DNA of 32,000 bases from Candidatus Saccharimonadota bacterium (GTDB lineage: Bacteria > Patescibacteriota > Saccharimonadia > Saccharimonadales > Saccharimonadaceae): assembly GCA_016700015.1 (NCBI GenBank), contig CP064995.1:480001-512000 (forward strand), written 5' to 3'. The translations under genes and the position numbers were made by a program. Shown in pieces: positions 4,158 through 25,011 of this stretch. Positions within the stretch are counted from its first letter, which is position 1, and every line of letters begins with the position of its first letter. The notes under the pieces were generated by a model that saw only the letters and a list, made by a program, of their open reading frames with translations, was not told the DNA's origin and ran no database searches.

Positions 4158-4883
4158 ATGTCTTCTAGGTGGAAAAAGCATAACTTACGCTGCTACGATA
4201 ATAATTATGCTCACGCCTGGGGTGGTTTTACTCTATTAGAGATTGCTTTCATAACTGCAGTTTTAGCGGTCCTGTTCACCATGGCAGTGGCTACTTTTAA
4301 CCGGGTTCAGTCGGGGTCTCGCGATAATAAGCGCGATCTTGATATGCATATTCTATATAGTGAACTCGAAAAGTACTATGAATCTCACGGGGAATACCCT
4401 GCTGGCTGCCCGGATACTGACTCTTCCGTTCTTGCCGGACAATGCTGGTTACTATCGACTAATGCGATGGCAGCGCCGTCGCTTGACTCGAGTACGTCAT
4501 TATCAAGTCTGCAGACTATTCTACCTGGAATTGGCGACGACTGGGGCGACCCACGTTTTCCAGTCAATAGCGATGGGTCTCCAGTAGCAAGTCCCGGCGA
4601 TATAAAACCTTTCATGTTACGCGACACATCAAACGACGATGGAAGGTACTTTTACCTGGGCTCAAGTAGTACCGGCGATGTCAGCACAAGCCGACCATCC
4701 TATTTCAGCCTACATTGTACTTTTCTCTTACCGGCTTCGAGTATAATCCCTAGTAATTATATGGCAGGTTATTTCAGCGAGGTAGATACAAAATGGCACC
4801 TGTTTCATGGTCTGCACGGTGAAAAGTGGCAAATCGAAAACTGCACCGAAGGCGTGGAGTATATTATTGATACAACAATCTGA
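4158..4883 (+). CDS. Type IV pilin-like protein (paralog of the N-terminal region of 1668..3290)
   Basis: ..HAWG|GFTLLEIAFITAVLAVLFTMAVATF is a prepilin motif. It shares LEKYYESHGEYP with LEKYYVANGEYP in the first pilin. The leader is unusually long (about 22 aa). Confidence 0.75.
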   Translation: MSSRWKKHNLRCYDNNYAHAWGGFTLLEIAFITAVLAVLFTMAVATFNRVQSGSRDNKRDLDMHILYSELEKYYESHGEYPAGCPDTDSSVLAGQCWLLSTNAMAAPSLDSSTSLSSLQTILPGIGDDWGDPRFPVNSDGSPVASPGDIKPFMLRDTSNDDGRYFYLGSSSTGDVSTSRPSYFSLHCTFLLPASSIIPSNYMAGYFSEVDTKWHLFHGLHGEKWQIENCTEGVEYIIDTTI

Positions 4884-5375
4884 CTAGCTAGTCTTGATCC
4901 GACGATAGGTAAATTTGGCGGCCGCACGCCAGCCACCACGCGCATCACTATCGGCCTTGCGGATAGTACCATCAATTATTTCACTTACAAGAAAAAGGGC
5001 AGGAGAATAGGGCGCAAGCGTGCGATAAAACATAATATCTGATTCATGCACGTCTTTACGACCCGGAAACACAGTGCGAAATTTTTCGCGGCCAATATCG
5101 TCGAAATAAGTAGGCCTGCCTTTTGGCGGAAGGTACATTTCAGGCCTCAGATTCATGCGCGCAGCGATTTTTTTGACGTCACCAAGCAACAGACGCGCCG
5201 GACCGTAAATATAGCAGTAAAGTTGCTTCTTGGTCGATAAAAACACTGTCGCTTTGGCAGAATGCCCGACATCGACCCCACGTACAATGACTTTTTCGAT
5301 GTCCAGCTGCACACCAAATTGGCTTTTCGCCAGCCGCTCGAGTGCGAAATCATCAAATATATCGCCGTTATCCAT
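4884..5375 (-). CDS. Hypothetical protein, 163 aa
   Basis: Clean ORF with normal composition. TGATATACT -10 (5383-5391 on the minus strand) lies 7 nt upstream of the ATG. No family recognised. Confidence 0.6.
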   Translation of the reverse strand: MDNGDIFDDFALERLAKSQFGVQLDIEKVIVRGVDVGHSAKATVFLSTKKQLYCYIYGPARLLLGDVKKIAARMNLRPEMYLPPKGRPTYFDDIGREKFRTVFPGRKDVHESDIMFYRTLAPYSPALFLVSEIIDGTIRKADSDARGGWRAAAKFTYRRIKTS

Positions 5376-5450
5376 AGCAAAAAGTATATCATACCATAGA
5401 ATAGCTGTCGAAAGTAACGGGGGTGGATTTCAAAATCGTAAATATGACTA

Positions 5451-5479
5451 TTGACAATTTGTTTGATTTGATATATAAT
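5451..5479 (+). promoter_or_regulatory. Consensus sigma70-type promoter TTGACA-17-TATAAT
   Basis: TTGACA 5451-5456, exact 17-nt spacer, TATAAT 5474-5479. Confidence 0.6.
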
Positions 5480-5485
5480 GATATT

Positions 5486-5862
5486 TATACTGTTCGTCGG
5501 TCGGGCGCCCGACACATGGCCTGGGCCACCGACGAACAGCGCACCTTGAGGAGAGTCGCGGTACCCGCGCGTAAGGGTATCGCAACCATTGCGAAAGGCA
5601 CGACGCCTGCCGCGACTCTCCTCCCTCACACCCCGACGGAAGTAATTCTGTCGGTAAACCCTGCGGCAGTGGTGCTCCGCAGGTGGTCACGCAGGTGACC
5701 GATAGCGCACCTACACGCAGTATCCGCAGCTGCGTGGCGCCCAATGTGCAATCGATGGCGTTTCGTGCGGCCCTCGGCGCCCGGTATATCCAAGTAGCCA
5801 CTCGCTACGTTCCGGGCCCCGAGGGGCTCACTTTTCCCGCCCGAAAGCGGGTTATTTTATTT
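5486..5862 (+). ncRNA. Unassigned GC-rich, highly structured RNA (~375 nt)
   Basis: Bounded by the promoter above and an intrinsic terminator. Hand-paired helices: 5490-5501/5528-5539 (12 bp); 5548-5561/5610-5623 (14 bp) enclosing 3 hairpins; 5633-5641/5646-5654 with a GUAA loop; 5660-5666/5677-5683; 5685-5690/5695-5700; 5714-5720/5730-5736; 5770-5784/5812-5827. No SD-led ORF. Confidence 0.6.
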
Positions 5863-5864
5863 TC
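5836..5864 (+). terminator. Intrinsic terminator of the structured RNA
   Basis: CCCGC-CCGAAA-GCGGG followed by TTATTTTATTTTC. Confidence 0.65.
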
Positions 5865-5880
5865 TCTGTATAATAGAGAG

Positions 5881-8800
5881 GTGGCTGAATTCGAAAAAAG
5901 ATATAAGCAGCTGAACAAAGCGCAGCGCGAAGCGGTGGATAGTATTGAAGGTCCGCTCTTAGTTATTGCTGGCCCCGGCACAGGTAAGACTGAGTTACTA
6001 AGTATGCGCGCCGCCAACATATTACAAAAGACCGACACGCTGCCCCAAAATATACTTTGTCTCACATTTACCGATAGTGGTGCTGCTGCTATGCGCCAGC
6101 GACTGGCTAGTATTATTGGCCCCGATGCCTATAAAGTCGCTATCCATACTTTCCATAGTTTTGGGAGTGAAGTTATCAACCAGAATAGCGAATACTTTTA
6201 CCATGGTGCCGCATTTAAGCCGGCCGATGAGCTGACGAGTCATGAGATACTGACTGGGATTTTTGACGAGCTCGACTATACCAACCCGCTCACCAGTAAA
6301 ATGAATGGGGAATACACCTATCTTAGCGACGCCAAAACGGTTATTAGCGAGCTAAAGCGTAATGGTTTGACGAGCGATGAACTACTGACCATCATCGCCT
6401 CCAACGACATCGTTCTCGACAGTGTTGAAAAAGAACTGAGTAGGATATTTTCTGAGCGGCCAAGCACCACCATGCTCCCACTCTTAGTGCCGCTTGCAAA
6501 AAAGGTCGCAGAACTCGCGCCACAACCTATCCCATCGGCCTATACGCCACTCTCAAATACCTTGTCGCTCAGTATGGCGCATGCGTTCGACCACGCCGTC
6601 GCAGCAAATAGTACGAAACCCCTTACCGCGTGGCGCGATGAATGGCTGGAAAAAAATGACCAGGGTAGCTTCGTGTTCAAAGATCGCAAACGCCACGCCA
6701 AGCTGCGAGCCCTAAGCCACATTTACTATGCTTATCTGACGCGCATGGAGCAAGCCGGACTATACGATTTCGATGACATGGTACTGGGCGTTATTCACGG
6801 ACTCGAAACGCAGGCAGACCTTGCATACAACTTGCAAGAAAAGTACCACTATATTATGGTGGATGAGTTTCAAGACACCAACCTTGCGCAGCTCCGTGTG
6901 CTGTTCGCGCTCACCAACAGTCCACTCTATGAGGGCAAGCCGAATATCATGGCAGTCGGTGATGATGACCAAGCAATTTATAGTTTTCAGGGCGCCGAAG
7001 TCAACAATATTCATCGTTTCCGTAGTCAATATCCGGGTATGCGCCTGGTAGTGCTAACCGACAATTACCGGTCGGCAAAACCAATCTTACTCCACGCACG
7101 TGAGGTGATAATACAAGGCGAAGATCGACTCGAATCAACCATGAGCGATCTCGGCCTGGTAAAAGAGCTCGTCGCCCTCACCACGCCCAAAGCGCCCAAA
7201 GTTCAGCTGATGCCATTTGCTTCCCAAGTTGAAGAGTACAGCTGGATTGCTAGGGATATCGCCAATCACATTGAGAGTGGTCAACCGGCCTCAACTATCG
7301 CCATACTAGCGCGCCGCCACAGCGAGCTCGTAGCTATGCTGCCGTATTTATATGCTAATAATATCACTGTCAACTATGAACGCCGCGATGACGTCCTTTC
7401 GATGGACGTCGTGATAGCGCTCGAACTTATCGCTTCGATTGCAGTGCACCTGTTCGACCGGGATATCGAAGCAGCCGATAGCCTATTGCCCGAACTGTTG
7501 GCTCATCCGGCATTTTTATGTGACCCTGAAGCGGTCTGGCGCATAAGTTTAGTAAGCCATCGCAATCATTTGTCGTGGCTCGAAAGCATGGCAACAACAC
7601 CTGAGTTTGCGCCCTTACAACAATGGCTTGTTTCGCTTGCGCTCGCCGTACCACACACCCCGCTTGAGCAATTTCTCGACATGCTTCTTGGCATGCCGGC
7701 CGACTCAACAAAAGACGATGTCGTTTCGTATCGGTCGCCCCTTTATGAGCACTACTTCAGTGCCGAACAACTTGCTATTAATCCCGAAGCTTACCTTGTA
7801 GCGCTTGACGCACTTCGTACTATTCGCGCCCACTTACGCGACTTTAAACCAAATAGCCCGCTTCACGTCCGTGACTTTTTGGAGTACACGACGATGTATC
7901 GACAGATAGGAACAGGCATAACAAGCCTGCGTAGGCAGGCCGACGAGATTGCCGGCTCAGTGCATTTGATGACCGTTCACAAAGCCAAGGGGCTGGAGTT
8001 CGATTCGGTATATATCGCCGGAGCCCATGACGGCGCCTGGGGCGAGCGGGTTCGTAGTCGTAGCCGACTGATTGGCTATCCCGAAAATCTTCAATTAGCT
8101 CCTGCCGGAAACACCTACAGCGAACGTCTACGACTATTCTATGTCGCGATGACCCGCGCCAAGCAACAGCTATCGATAAGCCACCCGACCGTCGCCGAAA
8201 ATGGCAGTACACTGCTGCCGGCTAGTTTTTTGACCGGTACTTCGCTGACAGCTATTGAGCAGCTGTCAATTCCGTCGTCGACCGAGCAAAACGCGCAAGC
8301 CCTGGTAGCATGGCACGATTACTATACACGCGCGACGACCGACTCCATGCAGCTACTACTTGCGCCGCTACTAGAAACCTACAAGCTGTCGGCAACGCAC
8401 TTGAATAACTTCATCGATCTATCCCGCGGCGGCCCTGGAACCTTCTTGCTCAACAATCTTTTGCGGTTCCCGCAGGCCAAAAGCGCCAATGCAGCGTACG
8501 GCACTGCAATCCACACCACTCTTCAGCGAGCACATGCTCATTTGTCGGCAACCGGCAGGCGAAAACCAATCGAAGATGTCCTGGGCGATTTCGTAAAAGA
8601 AATGACAAATCAGCATCTCGACAGCAGCGACACAGAGCTGTTCATACAAAAAGGCCAAGACAGTCTGAGTGCTTTTTTGTCGCAGTATTATAACAGCTTC
8701 ACCCCGTCGCAGCGCACAGAACTCGGCTTTGGCAATCAGTCAGTTGTGTGCGACGGCGTGCGCCTGACAGGTTCACTCGACCTAGTCGAGATTATCGATC

Positions 8801-9183
8801 AAAACATTACGGTCACTGACTACAAAACCGGCAAACCCAGCACTAGCTGGAAGGGGAGCACTGACTACGAAAAAATAAAGCTACATAAATATAAGCAACA
8901 ACTCATGTTTTACCAACTTCTCGTCGGGCATTCGCGCGACTATAGCAAGTATTCCTACCTAAAAGGCATCTTGCAATTCGTCGAACCAGACCGAAGTGGG
9001 ACTATCTATACCCTTGACGTGGTGGCAACCGAAGCAGAGTTGCATGTATTTCGTCAGTTACTGAAGGCAGTTTGGCACTGTATACAAAACCTCACCCTTC
9101 CCGACATTAGTCAGTTTGAGCCGACCTACAAAGGCATACTACAGTTTGAGAAATATCTTATTGACAATTATTCCAATAACTGA
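5881..9183 (+). CDS. UvrD/PcrA/AddA-like SF1 helicase fused to a C-terminal PD-(D/E)XK (RecB-family) nuclease
   Basis: Helicase motifs AGPGTGKTE, MVDEFQDTN, VGDDDQAIYSFQGA, TDNYRS, TVHKAKGLEFDSVYI, YVAMTRAK. C-terminal nuclease motifs LDLVEI..VTDYKTGK and QQLMFYQLL. Start set to GTG 5881 (TGTATAAT 5867-5874 is 6 nt upstream). The ORF-track extension 5683-5880 lies inside the structured RNA and its terminator. Confidence 0.85.
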   Translation: MAEFEKRYKQLNKAQREAVDSIEGPLLVIAGPGTGKTELLSMRAANILQKTDTLPQNILCLTFTDSGAAAMRQRLASIIGPDAYKVAIHTFHSFGSEVINQNSEYFYHGAAFKPADELTSHEILTGIFDELDYTNPLTSKMNGEYTYLSDAKTVISELKRNGLTSDELLTIIASNDIVLDSVEKELSRIFSERPSTTMLPLLVPLAKKVAELAPQPIPSAYTPLSNTLSLSMAHAFDHAVAANSTKPLTAWRDEWLEKNDQGSFVFKDRKRHAKLRALSHIYYAYLTRMEQAGLYDFDDMVLGVIHGLETQADLAYNLQEKYHYIMVDEFQDTNLAQLRVLFALTNSPLYEGKPNIMAVGDDDQAIYSFQGAEVNNIHRFRSQYPGMRLVVLTDNYRSAKPILLHAREVIIQGEDRLESTMSDLGLVKELVALTTPKAPKVQLMPFASQVEEYSWIARDIANHIESGQPASTIAILARRHSELVAMLPYLYANNITVNYERRDDVLSMDVVIALELIASIAVHLFDRDIEAADSLLPELLAHPAFLCDPEAVWRISLVSHRNHLSWLESMATTPEFAPLQQWLVSLALAVPHTPLEQFLDMLLGMPADSTKDDVVSYRSPLYEHYFSAEQLAINPEAYLVALDALRTIRAHLRDFKPNSPLHVRDFLEYTTMYRQIGTGITSLRRQADEIAGSVHLMTVHKAKGLEFDSVYIAGAHDGAWGERVRSRSRLIGYPENLQLAPAGNTYSERLRLFYVAMTRAKQQLSISHPTVAENGSTLLPASFLTGTSLTAIEQLSIPSSTEQNAQALVAWHDYYTRATTDSMQLLLAPLLETYKLSATHLNNFIDLSRGGPGTFLLNNLLRFPQAKSANAAYGTAIHTTLQRAHAHLSATGRRKPIEDVLGDFVKEMTNQHLDSSDTELFIQKGQDSLSAFLSQYYNSFTPSQRTELGFGNQSVVCDGVRLTGSLDLVEIIDQNITVTDYKTGKPSTSWKGSTDYEKIKLHKYKQQLMFYQLLVGHSRDYSKYSYLKGILQFVEPDRSGTIYTLDVVATEAELHVFRQLLKAVWHCIQNLTLPDISQFEPTYKGILQFEKYLIDNYSNN

Positions 9184-9189
9184 TATTAT
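9161..9189 (+). promoter_or_regulatory. Promoter TTGACA-17-TATTAT embedded in the 3' end of the helicase gene
   Basis: TTGACA 9161-9166, 17-nt spacer, TATTAT 9184-9189. Confidence 0.5.
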
Positions 9190-9226
9190 ACTTATATTCT
9201 GACCAGCCGATAAAGGGGTGAGGGCT

Positions 9227-9391
9227 TTGTTCAAGTCGGATAAAGACAAGGAGCGCGAAGCGCGTGAGCGCGCAGGCGCCAAGACCTGCCCCAAATGTGG
9301 TGGCAGAGGTGGCTTCGGCCCAGGTGGCTGTGGCGCGATAAGCCACGGACACTGCACAGTGTGCAATTGCACCGGCAGGGTCAATAAGTAG
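9227..9391 (+). CDS. 54-aa Cys-rich microprotein with DnaJ-type CxxCxGxG zinc-finger motif
   Basis: Below the ORF-track cutoff, so I translated it by hand: (TTG)FKSDKDKEREARERAGAKTCPKCGGRGGFGPGGCGAISHGHCTVCNCTGRVNK*. SD-like AAAGGGGTGA at 9212-9221. An alternative in-frame GTG lies at 9218. GC-rich. Confidence 0.5.
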   Translation: MFKSDKDKEREARERAGAKTCPKCGGRGGFGPGGCGAISHGHCTVCNCTGRVNK

Positions 9392-9555
9392 ACCTCGCTC
9401 GCTGCCGACGCGGCGGGCATTCGCCCTCAGTTCGGTGTTGGCCCACCATGCTGAGGGCAGAGAGGTGCTCCTTCAAGGAGCTGGCACACTGGGCAGGGGA
9501 TGAGACCTACTGCCGTGGAACTTTGGTGCCGCTTTAGTGAGGTCGAGCTCTCTCC

Positions 9556-9604
9556 GGCCGACAGACGCGCATTCCTCCAGCGCGCCTGTCGGCCTCTTTT
9601 TATT
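9556..9604 (+). terminator. Intrinsic terminator ending the 9161 promoter unit
   Basis: GGCCGACAG (9556-9564) pairs with CTGTCGGCC (9586-9594), with an inner GCGC/GCGC pairing, then TCTTTTTATT. Confidence 0.6.
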
Positions 9605-9612
9605 GGTTGTGC

Positions 9613-9641
9613 TTGCATTACACCACCCCTCATGCTAGGAT
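9613..9641 (+). promoter_or_regulatory. Candidate promoter TTGCAT-17-TAGGAT for the tRNA-like/tRNA-Arg unit
   Basis: TTGCAT 9613-9618, 17-nt spacer, TAGGAT 9636-9641. The -10 is weak. Confidence 0.35.
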
Positions 9642-9694
9642 ACGACAGCGGTCTTGTTCGGTGTGTCTACCAGACAGACAGGCAGGACCGACCA

Positions 9695-9760
9695 GGAGAG
9701 GTAGTTTAACGACTAAGAACGGCGCACCGCGCAAACCCGGGTTTGAATCCCGGCCTCTCC
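9695..9760 (+). ncRNA. tRNA-shaped element 1 (66 nt) lacking an anticodon arm
   Basis: Acceptor GGAGAGG/CCTCTCC. D-like stem GTTT/GAAC. T-arm CCGGG-TTTGAAT-CCCGG. The anticodon arm position holds only a GCGC-ACC-GCGC mini-hairpin. Confidence 0.4.
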
Positions 9761-9764
9761 CCCC

Positions 9765-9837
9765 CGAGCCGTTAGTGTAGCAGGGCATACTCTGGAGAAC
9801 CCCAGAGAAGCGGAGTGTTCGAATCCTCCCGGCTCGA
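9765..9837 (+). ncRNA. tRNA-shaped element 2 (73 nt), non-canonical; possible degenerate tRNA
   Basis: Acceptor CGAGCCG/CGGCTCG plus discriminator A. D-loop with GGG. Anticodon stem CTCTG/CAGAG with an 8-nt loop GAGAACCC (or a 6-nt loop in the other register). The TTCGAAT T-loop sits on a stem that pairs only after a 1-nt register slip (GGAG/CTCC). Confidence 0.4.
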
Positions 9838-9841
9838 CCGC

Positions 9842-9878
9842 GGTCGCACCACTTGACCACCAAATCGGTGGTGCGACC
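9842..9878 (+). other. 11-bp perfect hairpin between tRNA-like element 2 and tRNA-Arg
   Basis: GGTCGCACCAC (9842-9852) pairs with GTGGTGCGACC (9868-9878). The loop is TTGACCACCAAATCG. Confidence 0.4.
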
Positions 9879-9888
9879 CGCAAAACCA

Positions 9889-9960
9889 GCCTCATTAGCT
9901 CAGTGGCAGAGCGCTCACGTTCTAAGTGAGAGGTCACAGGTTCGAACCCTGTATGAGGCT
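9889..9960 (+). tRNA. tRNA-Arg (anticodon TCT)
   Basis: Canonical cloverleaf: GCCTCAT/ATGAGGC acceptor, GCTC-AGTGGCA-GAGC D-arm, CTCAC-GTTCTAA-GTGAG anticodon arm, ACAGG-TTCGAAC-CCTGT T-arm. CCA is not encoded. Confidence 0.9.
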
Positions 9961-9962
9961 CC

Positions 9963-10006
9963 GCTTCTGGCTGTCAGTTTCGACTGATAGCCAGGAGCCG
10001 CTTTTA
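9963..10006 (+). terminator. Intrinsic terminator after tRNA-Arg
   Basis: GCTTCTGGCTGTCAG (9963-9977) pairs with CTGATAGCCAGGAGC (9984-9998), with a few G-U pairs or mismatches, then CGCTTTTAAT. Confidence 0.6.
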
Positions 10007-10026
10007 ATATTCGCTATACTAATTAT

Positions 10027-11001
10027 ATGCAGACCTTTTGGCACAGACTCCCTACACCCTTTTTCATCCTTGCGCCCATGGAGGCGGTGACCGATGTTGT
10101 GTTTCGTCATGTCGTCGCCCAAGCTGGCCGGCCCGACGTCTTTTTCACGGAATTTACCAATGCCACTGGCTGGCACAGGGCGGGTGACAAAGCTATTGGC
10201 GGGCGACTTATCAAAACAAGCGACGAACACCCAATTGTCGCGCAGCTATGGGGGAGCGACCCGGGGGCGATGGCTGCACTTGGCATCCATTGTGCGCACC
10301 TCGGCTATGATGGTATCGACATTAACATGGGCTGCCCCGATCAATCTGCCGTTAAGGCCGGTGGCGGAGCTGGCATGATTCGCACGCCAGAAAAGGCCTA
10401 CGAAATGATTGCAGCAGCCAAACAGTCAGGGCTGCCCGTCAGTGTCAAAACACGGCTTGGCTATAGCAGCGTCGATGAGTGGCGTGATTGGCTCGGTGGC
10501 CTACTCTGCCAAGACATAGCCGTGCTTACTGTACATCTACGCACCAAAAAAGAAATGAGCAAAGTGCCCGCGCATTTTGAACTTATCCCCGAAATTATTG
10601 CTTTGCGCGACAGGCTTGCTCCTCAAACGCTCATCGTGATCAACGGCGACGTCCGCGACCGCAAGCATGGCCTGGAATTTGCAACACAGCATGGCGTCGA
10701 CGGCGTCATGATTGGTCGCGGTGTGTTCGCAAATCCTTTTTGTTTCCAAATGCTACATGGCGATGCAAGCGGCCATGAGCGCAGTGAGCTTATTAGTCTA
10801 CTACTATTTCATCTTGACGAATATGACCGCTATCACGAGCAAACGGGCCGGCCATTCGAAACCCTCAAGCGCTTTTTCAAAATCTATATCCGCGATTTTG
10901 ACGGTGCGAGTGATCTGCGCGACCAACTAATGCATTGTAAAACTACGCAAGACGTTCGTGCTTTACTAGAAAAGATCGATGTAATACTATCACATACGTA
11001 G
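10027..11001 (+). CDS. dus: tRNA-dihydrouridine synthase (Dus family)
   Basis: 324 aa. FILAPMEAVTDVVFR, GYDGIDINMGCP and VSVKTRLG are typical of the Dus TIM barrel. TATACT at 10015-10020 is 6 nt upstream of the ATG. Confidence 0.9.
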   Translation: MQTFWHRLPTPFFILAPMEAVTDVVFRHVVAQAGRPDVFFTEFTNATGWHRAGDKAIGGRLIKTSDEHPIVAQLWGSDPGAMAALGIHCAHLGYDGIDINMGCPDQSAVKAGGGAGMIRTPEKAYEMIAAAKQSGLPVSVKTRLGYSSVDEWRDWLGGLLCQDIAVLTVHLRTKKEMSKVPAHFELIPEIIALRDRLAPQTLIVINGDVRDRKHGLEFATQHGVDGVMIGRGVFANPFCFQMLHGDASGHERSELISLLLFHLDEYDRYHEQTGRPFETLKRFFKIYIRDFDGASDLRDQLMHCKTTQDVRALLEKIDVILSHT

Positions 11002-11045
11002 CCCGGTGACCTATCAAAAGATAGAGTTCGCCAGGAGTATCCACA

Positions 11046-11094
11046 CCCCGATCTTCCTGCCATCGCGCGCAGGGAAGGTCGGGGTACTTCTTTT
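11046..11094 (+). terminator. Intrinsic terminator after dus
   Basis: CCCCGATCTTCCTG pairs imperfectly with CAGGGAAGGTCGGGG, followed by TACTTCTTTT. Confidence 0.6.
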
Positions 11095-11120
11095 GTATAT
11101 ATTCATGCTATCATAACAGA

Positions 11121-23666: not shown

Positions 23667-23695
23667 TTGACAGATATAAATAGACGTGCTATAAA
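23667..23695 (+). promoter_or_regulatory. Promoter TTGACA-17-TATAAA
   Basis: TTGACA 23667-23672, 17-nt spacer, TATAAA 23690-23695. Confidence 0.5.
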
Positions 23696-23730
23696 ATAGT
23701 TGACCTATCCATACGAGATTGGAGCACATC

Positions 23731-24096
23731 ATGGCTGTCGACCTGAAAACCCGCGAAGCCCGCCTGGCACGGCTCAATGACATCCTGGGCCTCAGGGAAA
23801 AGACTGAGGCGCTGGCCGCCGAAGCCGACCATCACTACACCAATGGTGGCAACCGAACGGCGAGCGCACGCTTCAAAGTCAAGCTCCCGAGCCCCCAGGA
23901 TCGCGCATTCGTCGCGAGCTTCAGTTCGAACGAGTTGGCCGCTGCGATCAAAGCAGTTGCCAAAGCAAACCTGGATGACTCCAGGCCTCGTCGAGGATTT
24001 ATGTCCCACCACACTTTCTGTTACAGTGGAGACATCAAACTTCCTGGTATCCTCCAAAGTGTCTGGTTCACTCTGGCGGTGACTCCCGGAGACTAA
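23731..24096 (+). CDS. Hypothetical 121-aa protein, GC-rich cassette
   Basis: MAVDLKTREARLARLNDILGL... High GC3 over the first two thirds. Weak SD (TGGAG). Followed by a strong terminator. Mirror-strand and alternative-frame ORFs look like GC artefacts. Confidence 0.5.
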   Translation: MAVDLKTREARLARLNDILGLREKTEALAAEADHHYTNGGNRTASARFKVKLPSPQDRAFVASFSSNELAAAIKAVAKANLDDSRPRRGFMSHHTFCYSGDIKLPGILQSVWFTLAVTPGD

Positions 24097-24098
24097 TA

Positions 24099-24161
24099 CC
24101 ACCCCCGCGGGGCTGCTCCGGATCTGTTCCGTGGTAGCAGCCCCGCAGAAGGGGTGGTTTT
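24099..24161 (+). terminator. Long nested hairpin terminator
   Basis: CCACCCC..GCGGGGCTGCT....AGCAGCCCCGC..GGGGTGG followed by TTTTA. Confidence 0.6.
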
Positions 24162-24505: not shown

Positions 24506-24534
24506 TTGACAAAATGTAAATTATCGTGTATAAA
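24506..24534 (+). promoter_or_regulatory. Promoter TTGACA-17-TATAAA
   Basis: TTGACA 24506-24511, 17-nt spacer, TATAAA 24529-24534. Confidence 0.55.
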
Positions 24535-24572
24535 TAATATGTCGGCCACCCATCTAGTCCAAGGAGGACACC

Positions 24573-24863
24573 ATGGCCAGCAGCGACACGACCACTGACG
24601 TGCAGGACGCCACCACCGAGACGACGGCCCCCGAGGCCTTCACCGTCCAGGTGAGCGGGCACGGCATCCAGTTCAGCTGGACGCCCCAGGGCGAGCACGC
24701 GCAGGAACACCTGCGCGAACTGGGCGAGAGCGGCCGCAGCGAGTTCGAGCAGCTGCTCGCCGGGATGCTCGGCGGGCTGGAAGAGGACCTGATGCTCGCA
24801 CTCTGCGAGCAGGCCAACCCCCTCATCTCGCTGCTGAGGGAGCTGTTGGGGCCGCACGCCTAA
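24573..24863 (+). CDS. Hypothetical acidic 96-aa protein, GC-rich cassette
   Basis: Perfect SD AAGGAGG (24561-24567) lies 5 nt upstream of the ATG. Nearly every codon ends in G or C. 50 of 70 nt at 24591-24660 are G+C by hand count. Confidence 0.6.
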   Translation: MASSDTTTDVQDATTETTAPEAFTVQVSGHGIQFSWTPQGEHAQEHLRELGESGRSEFEQLLAGMLGGLEEDLMLALCEQANPLISLLRELLGPHA

Positions 24864-24871
24864 CCCACACC

Positions 24872-24924
24872 CGCCAGGCGACTACGGAAGCTGCACCCCG
24901 CGTGCACACCGTAGCCGCCTGGCG
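24872..24924 (+). other. 16-bp hairpin in the 3' UTR of 24573..24863
   Basis: CGCCAGGCGACTACGG pairs with CCGTAGCCGCCTGGCG, with one A/C mismatch. Confidence 0.5.
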
Positions 24925-24950
24925 GCAACACATTCTATCAGCACCACACA

Positions 24951-24972
24951 CCCCAAGCAGGGGTTGTTTTTT
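24951..24972 (+). terminator. Intrinsic terminator
   Basis: CCCC-AAGCA-GGGG followed by TTGTTTTTTAT. Confidence 0.6.
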
Positions 24973-24977
24973 ATCTC

Positions 24978-25011
24978 AAAAATCTCAAGGGTCGTACCCT
25001 TGAGATTTTTT
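24978..25011. terminator. Bidirectional-looking terminator hairpin
   Basis: AAAAATCTCAAGGGT-CG-TACCCTTGAGATTTTTT: the stem is flanked by an A-run and a T-run. Confidence 0.6.

Follow-up and report, generated by a model that had tools for sequence, protein, structure and literature searches.

What is a strongly folded block of DNA rich in guanine and cytosine (GC), furnished with a promoter and a terminator of its own, doing between two conserved genes of a member of the Saccharibacteria, whose genomes, like those of other bacteria of the Candidate Phyla Radiation (CPR), are tiny and densely coding? The question is raised by positions 5451-5864 of a stretch of Candidatus Saccharimonadota DNA of 32,000 nucleotides (nt) (contig CP064995.1, positions 480,001 to 512,000), hereafter the window, within which all coordinates are counted from the first letter. 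A preliminary description of this unit had proposed an orphan gene for a structured RNA, complete with promoter and terminator, and the analysis presented here supports that proposal: judged from its sequence and from that of its relatives, the unit is very probably a real gene for a structured non-coding RNA (ncRNA) that matches no known family. The explanation that accounts best for the evidence as a whole, to which we assign a probability of roughly 0.55, is that of a self-contained RNA cassette, belonging to an undescribed, fast-evolving and dispensable family of Saccharibacteria, whose RNA would act in trans.

A predicted transcription unit in GC-poor surroundings

The unit is delimited by the following elements.

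5451-5479, + strand: sigma-70-type promoter TTGACA-17-TATAAT, scoring 12/12.
5487-5864, + strand: predicted ncRNA transcript of ~375 nt, 61-64% GC, with eight helical elements.
5836-5864, + strand: intrinsic terminator, made of a GC stem of 5 base pairs (bp), CCCGC/GCGGG (5836-5851), a 6-nt loop and the U-run UUAUUUUAUUUU.

The promoter is the sole perfect match to its consensus within the window of 32 kilobases (kb), and when one mismatch is tolerated four matches are observed, versus 0.10 expected from shuffled sequence. Transcription would start at about 5486-5487. From there on the base composition changes sharply, with a GC fraction of 0.64-0.65 over 5500-5800 as opposed to 0.37-0.45 in the flanks and 0.51 in the window as a whole, and at the far end the stem CCCGC/GCGGG with TTATTTTATTTT behind it is predicted to be an intrinsic terminator. 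Consensus promoter, GC-rich body in AT-rich flanks and terminator had all been named in the preliminary description, and all three stand, as does its list of helices, every one of which recurs in both the minimum free energy (MFE) and the centroid structure.

The predicted fold

The + strand of 5486-5864 folds with an MFE of -188.1 kcal/mol, whereas dinucleotide-shuffled sequences give -145 +/- 6 kcal/mol (z = -7.2) and not one in 100 of them is as good. A coding control of the same length and 72% GC (24540-24918) reaches only z = -2.5, so GC content by itself is insufficient to explain the fold. The layout is that of a string of independent hairpins; the 5' and 3' ends do not pair with each other, and a long-range closing helix is lacking. 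Since the conservation of these hairpins is best described beside them, it should be said here that related loci, with or without a unit in the same place, are designated by L and a number, that L157 represents the window's own lineage (99%), and that L158/L159 and L160 stand further off, with helicase genes (see below) whose products are 73% and 71% identical to the window's, respectively. The hairpins are, in order:

5490-5501/5528-5539, + strand: H1, a 12-bp hairpin right after the transcription start, present in the fold.
5548-5562/5609-5623, + strand: H2, a 15-bp perfect outer stem that closes a junction of the hairpins 5563-5578, 5580-5594 and 5596-5608.
5633-5641/5646-5654, + strand: H3, a 9-bp hairpin with a GUAA tetraloop, unchanged in L157 and L158.
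5660-5666/5677-5683, + strand: H4, a 7-bp hairpin with the conserved loop CAGUGGUGCU, first half of a module shared with other lineages.
5685-5704, + strand: H5, a 6-bp hairpin (5685-5690/5695-5700) followed by a conserved GAUA, second half of the shared module.
5705-5740, + strand: H6, a hairpin (5714-5721/5729-5736) extended by 5705-5708/5737-5740, unchanged in L158.
5765-5784/5812-5831, + strand: H7, a long GC-rich 3' hairpin of 17 pairs with the AU-rich internal loop UAUAUCCAAG and an apical hairpin, 5794-5798/5804-5808.

H1, by its place, may serve to stabilise the 5' end; a 5' hairpin also opens the other RNAs found at this site. H6 is absent from L005 and L125 and is therefore assigned to the variable part of the RNA. 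A long hairpin directly before the terminator is found in all family members, and in the window H7, being followed by CACUUUU, may constitute a first terminator in tandem with the second. A kissing interaction between the loop of H4 (AGUGG) and the apical loop of H7 (CCACU) was considered and dropped, as it is not kept in L005 or L125.

Substitutions spare the helices

Two pairs of closely related RNAs allow the fold to be confronted with the pattern of change. The RNAs of the window and L158 differ at 36 places, 13 of them in 212 paired columns versus 23 in 168 unpaired ones (Fisher p = 0.014). The stems of H2, H3, H5, H6 and H7 and of the terminator are unchanged, apart from a 1-nt deletion at the base of H2, and this includes all 22 pairs of H7. 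The changes include the following: H1 carries two compensatory pair changes, U-A to C-G and C-G to U-A; a C-G pair of H4 becomes U.G; the differences within H2 fall in its hairpin loops, for example GUAA to GAAA; the H5 tetraloop is GCAG in the window and GAAA in L158; and the terminator loop goes from CCGAAA to AUGAAG with the stem kept. The second pair, L028 and L029, gives the stronger contrast, with 5 of its 27 differences in 242 paired columns versus 22 in 162 unpaired ones (p = 7e-6), and all five changes in paired columns keep pairing through G.U. Because pairs kept in this manner work on the + strand only, the + strand fits as the RNA strand. The preliminary description had made its helices depend on how homologues treat them; in both pairs, and in the module described below, substitutions spare or preserve them.

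A variable slot between two core genes

The unit occupies a slot with these borders:

4884-5375, - strand: gene for a 163-amino-acid (aa) conserved hypothetical protein, the left border of the slot, divergent from the helicase gene.
5867-5874, + strand: extended -10 sequence of the helicase gene, TGTATAAT, 6 nt upstream of the GTG start.
5881-5883, + strand: GTG start of the helicase gene; the UvrD N-terminal domain starts at residue 11 counted from 5881.

Across more than 100 related loci, the spacer between the 163-aa and helicase genes is in most cases just ~45-120 nt long and contains the two divergent -10 boxes and nothing else. A minority of loci, from about 10 other lineages, have an insert of 300-530 nt in the slot, with a promoter, a GC-rich folded body and a terminator; these are L004, L005, L028/L029 (identical with L101 and L103), L083, L125, L157, L158/L159, L160 (with only the 3' part of the unit on the contig), L161 and L162. 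Units of this RNA type are always co-oriented with the helicase gene. They share an anatomy of A-tract, TATTGACA, 17-nt spacer, (TG)TATAAT, GC-rich body and terminator, the cassette promoters outside the window running from the A-tract and TATTGACA to TG-TATAAT-G, and their RNAs all fold far more stably than shuffled sequence (z of -4.1 to -10.8). In most of them 12-25 nt lie between the terminator and the -10 box of the helicase gene, the distance being 50-70 nt in L005 and L125; in the window the terminator occupies the place expected for the helicase -35 box. The proposed family is thus characterised by a near-consensus promoter, a 5' hairpin, variable GC-rich hairpins, the H4-H5 module in at least four lineages, a long 3' hairpin and a terminator abutting the helicase -10 box, and the window's unit has the position in the slot, the helicase strand, the near-consensus promoter and the terminator that go with it. 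A pattern match in L014/L142 was discarded, as it comes from the ordinary terminator of a coding gene.

Presence of the unit varies among close relatives. It is missing from L175 and L176, whose helicases are 88-89% identical to that of L125; from L178-L181, with helicases 84% identical to that of L083; from L182, with a helicase 80% identical to that of L004; and from L183-L185, where identity to the window's 163-aa protein is 74%. Relatives without the RNA have a clean gap of 44-65 nt in the slot.

Other payloads are also found there. In L036 (9440-9990) the slot holds a gene for a 136-aa protein with its own promoter and terminator; in L094 (3150-3990) a gene for a 215-aa membrane protein, of 65% GC, again with its own promoter and terminator; and in L037 (~9560-9760) a hairpin of ~180 nt with long perfect arms. 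Given these three occupants, the slot is to be regarded as a variable site.

Recombination between lineages is suggested by a comparison of the window with L158. Over 4882-11100 their nucleotide identity is a mosaic, in which blocks of 84-96% (5472-5870, 8354-8950, 9630-9930 and 10090-11100) alternate with blocks of 45-75%. The RNA stands at 87-96% (5472-5870), the 163-aa gene at ~72% and most of the helicase gene at 50-80%, and identity rises again to 84-95% over the 3' end of the helicase gene, the transfer RNA (tRNA) region and the Dus gene (88-95%). The helicases of the window, L158 and L160 are about equidistant (71-73%), while the RNAs of the window and L158 are 92-93% identical and that of L160 is clearly different. 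From the mosaic of identities, homologous recombination between Saccharibacteria lineages appears likely.

The H4-H5 module

Between subtypes the RNAs are difficult to align. When the window's RNA and each of the other slot RNAs were searched with nhmmer against 156 related loci, the sole matches were to themselves and to near-identical partners; nhmmer and blastn link just window and L158 (92-93%) and L028 and L029 (95%), and all-against-all blastn otherwise gives short patches. One element is nonetheless shared (window 5656-5704). It consists of AAAYCCUGYGG, a loop with A-GUGGU, CCRCAGG, one U, a 6-bp hairpin and GAUA, and four RNAs have it, those of the window, L158, L005 and L125. Across these four the H4 stem covaries (C-G, U.G, U-A) around a loop core, A-GUGGU, that is kept, and in H5 the window and L005 differ by the covariations U-A/C-G and A-U/G-C.

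A covariance model of the module, R1, was built from the window, L158 and L005, with L125 left out of the building. It scores the window's own module (5653-5711) at 85 bits, recovers L125 with 26 bits (E = 1.8e-5 for a search of 0.66 Mb) and finds L004 weakly, with E = 7.5, at the expected place. In the alignment fitted to R1, 5 of 13 pairs change on both sides and 97% of cells pair; the resulting covariation score is reached by none of 500 shuffles, and slid registers come nowhere close. The lineages that bear the module have helicases only ~61-62% identical to that of the window. In L028, L083, L160, L161 and L162 the module was not detected, and it therefore defines a subgroup of the slot RNAs, as opposed to all occupants. 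A scan of viral contigs for the H4 motif as a pattern gave nine loci, all of them at chance level with R1 and set aside.

A second model, R2, made from the window's 3' domain, finds the 3' domains of L083, L161, L125, L162 and L005 at the expected position with E of 0.04-0.7, and an unrelated terminator scores similarly; these model matches indicate a shared layout and do not prove homology.

No known family

The preliminary description had looked in vain for the known large RNAs, and systematic searches agree. The window was compared with the 4227 models of Rfam 15 at gathering thresholds, and 5380-5900 with permissive filters at E <= 10. Over the whole window the gathering thresholds return only a tRNA, at 9889-9960, and the permissive scan returns three chance-level matches to unrelated models (E 0.84-7.8). 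Applied to the RNAs of L083, L162 and L005, Rfam 15 gives scattered chance matches (E 0.15-9), with no family recurring between members. Among the 4227 models, those for signal recognition particle (SRP) RNA, riboswitches, ribozymes and the OLE, GOLLD, ROOL, raiA and HEARO RNAs give no match; nor do the RNase P models RF00010 and RF00011, at gathering score or at E <= 10, or the 6S model RF00013, at E <= 10. ARAGORN finds one tRNA in the window and no transfer-messenger RNA (tmRNA).

Searches for mobile or repeated relatives are equally empty. Comparison of the RNA region by BLAST with phage and plasmid collections yields no match, neither the window nor the ~2 Mb of related loci contains a further copy of the unit (each locus has one), no target duplication is seen at the L125/L175 boundary, the unit has no direct or tandem repeats and no flanking a1/a2 inverted repeats, and its neighbours include no reverse transcriptase or toxin domain. 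Nothing similar is described in the literature on ncRNAs of Saccharibacteria and Patescibacteria or in the papers that discovered RNAs as GC-rich intergenic regions, and the same searched literature offers no validated small RNA for Saccharibacteria or other CPR bacteria. According to a transcriptome preprint, none has been validated in TM7x (bioRxiv 10.1101/2022.03.25.485537).

A proposed role and what weighs against it

Within the favoured reading of a dispensable cassette for a trans-acting RNA, one can suggest how such an RNA would work. It is predicted to be made in large amounts, an abundance that is taken from the consensus promoter, and to be protected at both ends by hairpins; its stability is taken from the hairpin that sits directly at the 5' end and from the long hairpin and terminator at the 3' end. 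It would then act in trans, with the H4-H5 module as the recognition site for a partner, whether protein or RNA, and with the remaining hairpins as a tolerant scaffold. This last step, in which H4-H5 is given the part of a recognition module, is tentative, drawn as it is from anatomy.

Several observations weigh against the cassette reading or against parts of it. The first group concerns the fold. The - strand of the unit is nearly as stable (-186.9 kcal/mol, z = -6.2), and the helices are almost purely Watson-Crick, with G.U at 4-8%, which is why both strands fold alike; the fold by itself thus cannot point to the transcribed strand, and a palindrome at the level of DNA would give the same two-strand picture. 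The second group concerns conservation. Sequences are few, and most helices of the window's subtype never vary; since recombination is likely, the high identity of the RNA is not clean evidence for constraint. Third, kinship within the family is loose: nhmmer finds nothing between subtypes, of the k-mers shared by nine lineages none exceeds shuffled expectation, the covariation alignment of the module was fitted to R1 and includes one probable chance match, and outside H4-H5 the homology of the family is argued from position, from layout and from model scores that are marginal (E 0.04-0.7). Finally, relatives at 80-89% helicase identity lack the unit, which makes it dispensable and accessory, and a trans-acting, partner-binding role is read from anatomy alone.

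Alternative explanations

An action in cis, on the helicase gene downstream, is one of the two alternatives that survive best, although we consider it unlikely. The unit would then be a long leader or attenuator with a terminator that is read through in certain conditions, or else a strongly transcribed insulator or a device for delivering RNA polymerase, set immediately before the helicase promoter, and such a role suits the co-orientation of all units with the helicase gene and a terminator that mostly ends 12-25 nt before the -10 box, at the position of the -35 element. The helicase gene, however, keeps its own extended -10 and near-leaderless start with or without the unit, and orthologous loci work with no such element at all. 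The hypervariable body is unlike leaders that sense a ligand or a protein, two hairpin-plus-U-run signals stand in tandem, and in L005 and L125 the terminator lies 50-70 nt from the helicase promoter.

Equally improbable, in our estimate, is a selfish or neutral cassette, that is, GC-rich foreign or palindromic DNA spread by homologous recombination through its conserved flanks and transcribed incidentally. The variable presence among close relatives, the protein payloads (L036, L094) and the palindrome (L037) found in the same slot, the mosaic identity to L158 and the near-perfect Watson-Crick stems that fold on both strands are all as this explanation would have them. It does not account for the single orientation across lineages or for the retention of near-consensus promoters and terminators, for substitutions that avoid stems and keep G.U pairs in the + strand sense only, or for a conserved loop on covarying stems in lineages that share only ~61-62% helicase identity with the window. 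Nor does it fit a unit that is single-copy at each locus and found nowhere else in ~2 Mb of related loci or in phage, plasmid and viral collections.

A variant of the RNA-gene reading, somewhat less likely again, sees in these units hypervariable, highly expressed RNAs of conflict or host interaction (decoys, immunity RNAs or effector RNAs between bacteria) that are under diversifying selection at a slot exchanged by recombination. It fits RNAs that are conserved within a type, unalignable between types, and gained and lost among close relatives; the actinobacteria-like GC content would then reflect the high-GC hosts of these epibionts.

More doubtful is a functional analogue of 6S or Ms1 RNA, an abundant RNA that binds RNA polymerase. 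6S RNA is rod-shaped, with a closing stem and a large bubble at its centre. The window's RNA forms no rod with a central bubble, has no 5'-3' pairing and, as noted, escapes the Rfam 6S model at E <= 10, and a global regulator would not be expected to be lost from close relatives, as this RNA is. The case for the analogy is the AU-rich internal loop (UAUAU) of the 3' hairpin together with the resemblance to Ms1 of Actinobacteria, which is structured and GC-rich, has a size of ~300 nt and a strong promoter of its own, and, since its sequence drifts, is tracked by synteny (PMC9130861). The genes beside the window's RNA are not the HAD-IB hydrolase and oxidoreductase genes of the Ms1 neighbourhood (PMC9130861).

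The two remaining explanations are poorly compatible with the data. A very divergent housekeeping RNA (RNase P RNA, tmRNA or SRP RNA) is most improbable: the length is right and there is some loose likeness between GAGGAGAGUCGCGG and the 5' strand of helix P4 in RNase P, but that segment pairs locally in a 15-bp hairpin stem, so that the absence of a P4 pairing noted in the preliminary description holds, no Rfam match at E <= 10 to such an RNA is found in the window or in three other members, ARAGORN sees no tmRNA, and absence from close relatives and hypervariability are unlike an essential RNA. Least probable of all is a small protein gene or the messenger of a type I toxin, as could be suggested by stop-free frames of 55-117 codons, which are owed to the high GC content, and by other GC-rich, strong-promoter units of the window that do encode small proteins: the RNA region has no Shine-Dalgarno sequence with a start codon and no hydrophobic peptide, its sole internal ATG (5516) has no counterpart in L158, every frame is interrupted by 1-nt and 2-nt indels between the window and L158 (at 5517, 5549, 5601 and 5745-5746), which with the loss of the ATG rules out a conserved reading frame, and a concatenated six-frame translation searched against 5.8 billion proteins finds only a mis-extended helicase N-terminus of the window's own lineage. 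The non-coding character claimed in the preliminary description is thereby upheld.

Should the cassette reading be correct, the unit would be among the first lineage-specific ncRNAs of its phylum, and it would mark an accessory slot inside an otherwise core region. An RNA that bound a cellular machine, or had a part in conflict with host or phage, would open up RNA-based regulation in episymbionts; a neutral cassette would still document recombination-driven turnover of islets in Saccharibacteria genomes. Natural pairs with and without the unit are available for comparison in L125 versus L175 and L176.

Neighbouring genes and other features of the window

Upstream of the unit lie genes for a tRNA U5-methyltransferase and pilin-like proteins. 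The 163-aa protein at the left border has 923 homologues, all hypothetical and almost exclusively from Saccharibacteria records, with 65-81% identity among the best 120 of the 923; no relative is found in Pfam, NCBIfam, PADLOC or the PDB, and an AlphaFold model from 30 homologues has a mean confidence (pLDDT) of 57, too poor for a fold search. Its gene adjoins the helicase gene in most Saccharibacteria loci.

The helicase, of 1100 aa, is UvrD/PcrA/AddA-like with a C-terminal PD-(D/E)XK nuclease domain. Against models of defence systems it gives generic UvrD-type matches only, and its gene is a core gene; the best species-representative genome has a helicase 64% identical, and the relatives are Candidatus Saccharimonas-like lineages of the Saccharibacteria. 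Translation most likely starts at the GTG at 5881, directly behind the gene's own extended -10, so that the gene appears leaderless or nearly so. Orthologous loci without the RNA have the same TACAAT/TATAAT box with a start codon ~7-12 nt downstream. A mechanical list of open reading frames (ORFs) and at least one public gene call (P0001, 1142 aa) run the helicase ORF upstream into the RNA region.

A second promoter-to-terminator unit, at 9161-9600, begins with TTGACA-17-TATTAT overlapping the helicase stop codon and contains a 57-aa ORF (9218-9391) of zinc-ribbon-like appearance (CxxC...CxxC), then a GC-rich 3' region that is folded and, at ~9557-9600, a terminator hairpin (z = -4.7). Many Saccharibacteria loci likewise have a strong promoter where the helicase gene ends, with GC-rich sequence behind it, and ORFs of 49-54 aa are called at this place in L161, L177, L178 and L182.

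Just upstream of the canonical tRNA are two tRNA-like genes, 9695-9761 and 9766-9838, both missed by ARAGORN and by the default Rfam run and both 93-94% identical in L158. With permissive filters, the Rfam tRNA model gives the former 44 bits, and the anticodon arm of this gene ends in a 3-nt loop (GGCGC-ACC-GCGC); the latter is a cloverleaf with the T-loop GTTCGAATC, a 6-bp anticodon stem and a 6-nt loop. The canonical tRNA itself, at 9889-9960, is labelled Pyl by ARAGORN, with anticodon CTA; in the covariance model the loop is GUUCUAA, that is, U33, anticodon UCU (Arg) and A37, and on this alignment the suppressor call looks like a register artefact.

Two small protein genes whose GC, up to 0.73, far exceeds that of the genome lie in 23667-24100 and 24506-24990, encoding 121 aa (23731-24096) and 96 aa (24573-24863). 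Each has a near-consensus promoter, a Shine-Dalgarno sequence and a terminator, neither product has a Pfam match, and both genes may have been acquired from high-GC donors.

Comparison with known systems

In its style of working, as far as sequence features permit such a likening, the unit's closest analogue is Ms1. With Ms1 and 6S RNA it shares a stand-alone gene, a strong promoter, a terminator, a length of a few hundred nt, a strong fold and poor sequence conservation; it differs in being built of eight separate hairpins, in having other neighbours (the 163-aa gene and the helicase gene) and in being dispensable.

OLE, GOLLD, ROOL, raiA and HEARO RNAs were found as GC-rich intergenic regions in lower-GC genomes. 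Like them, the unit is long, multi-helical, lineage-restricted and patchy in distribution, and they too had no assigned function at discovery. Unlike them, it matches none of the models, its family is conserved to a much lower degree, neither long-range helices nor conserved junctions were detected in it, and at 300-530 nt the RNAs of its family are smaller than most of them. The preliminary description had placed the unit in the range of ribozymes or large ornate RNAs; its separate Watson-Crick hairpins, the very low conservation of the family and its absence from close relatives speak against that suggestion.

RNase P RNA has a long-range helix P4, formed from the conserved regions CR-I and CR-V, and a helix P1 that closes its ends, while tmRNA combines a tRNA-like domain with a tag reading frame. 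The unit resembles both in length, GC enrichment and strong promoter, and differs from them in having no P4 pseudoknot, conserved regions, tRNA-like domain or tag reading frame and in not being universal. A cis-acting leader has a conserved sensing core and supplies the promoter on which its downstream gene depends; here the body is hypervariable, and the helicase gene has a -10 box and start of its own (5867-5883), kept in loci that lack the unit.

With the msr-msd RNAs of retrons and the antitoxin RNAs of type III systems the unit has in common a strong structure that is variable between types and conserved within a type, and a presence that varies between strains. No partner gene travels with it, however, the flanks being core genes with or without the RNA, and it has neither tandem repeats nor a1/a2 inverted repeats. 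Repetitive extragenic palindromes (REP), bacterial interspersed mosaic elements (BIME) and miniature inverted-repeat transposable elements (MITE) are likewise intergenic, variably present and dense in GC-rich, near-perfect inverted repeats. REP and MITE elements occur several times in a genome, often with terminal inverted repeats and target duplications; the unit differs in being single-copy, with a consensus promoter and a terminator, a fixed orientation and substitutions specific to the + strand.

Set beside these systems, the unit is a new family within a known kind, the stand-alone structured bacterial ncRNA, and what is unusual about it is that a hypervariable and dispensable payload of this kind should be carried at a fixed site.

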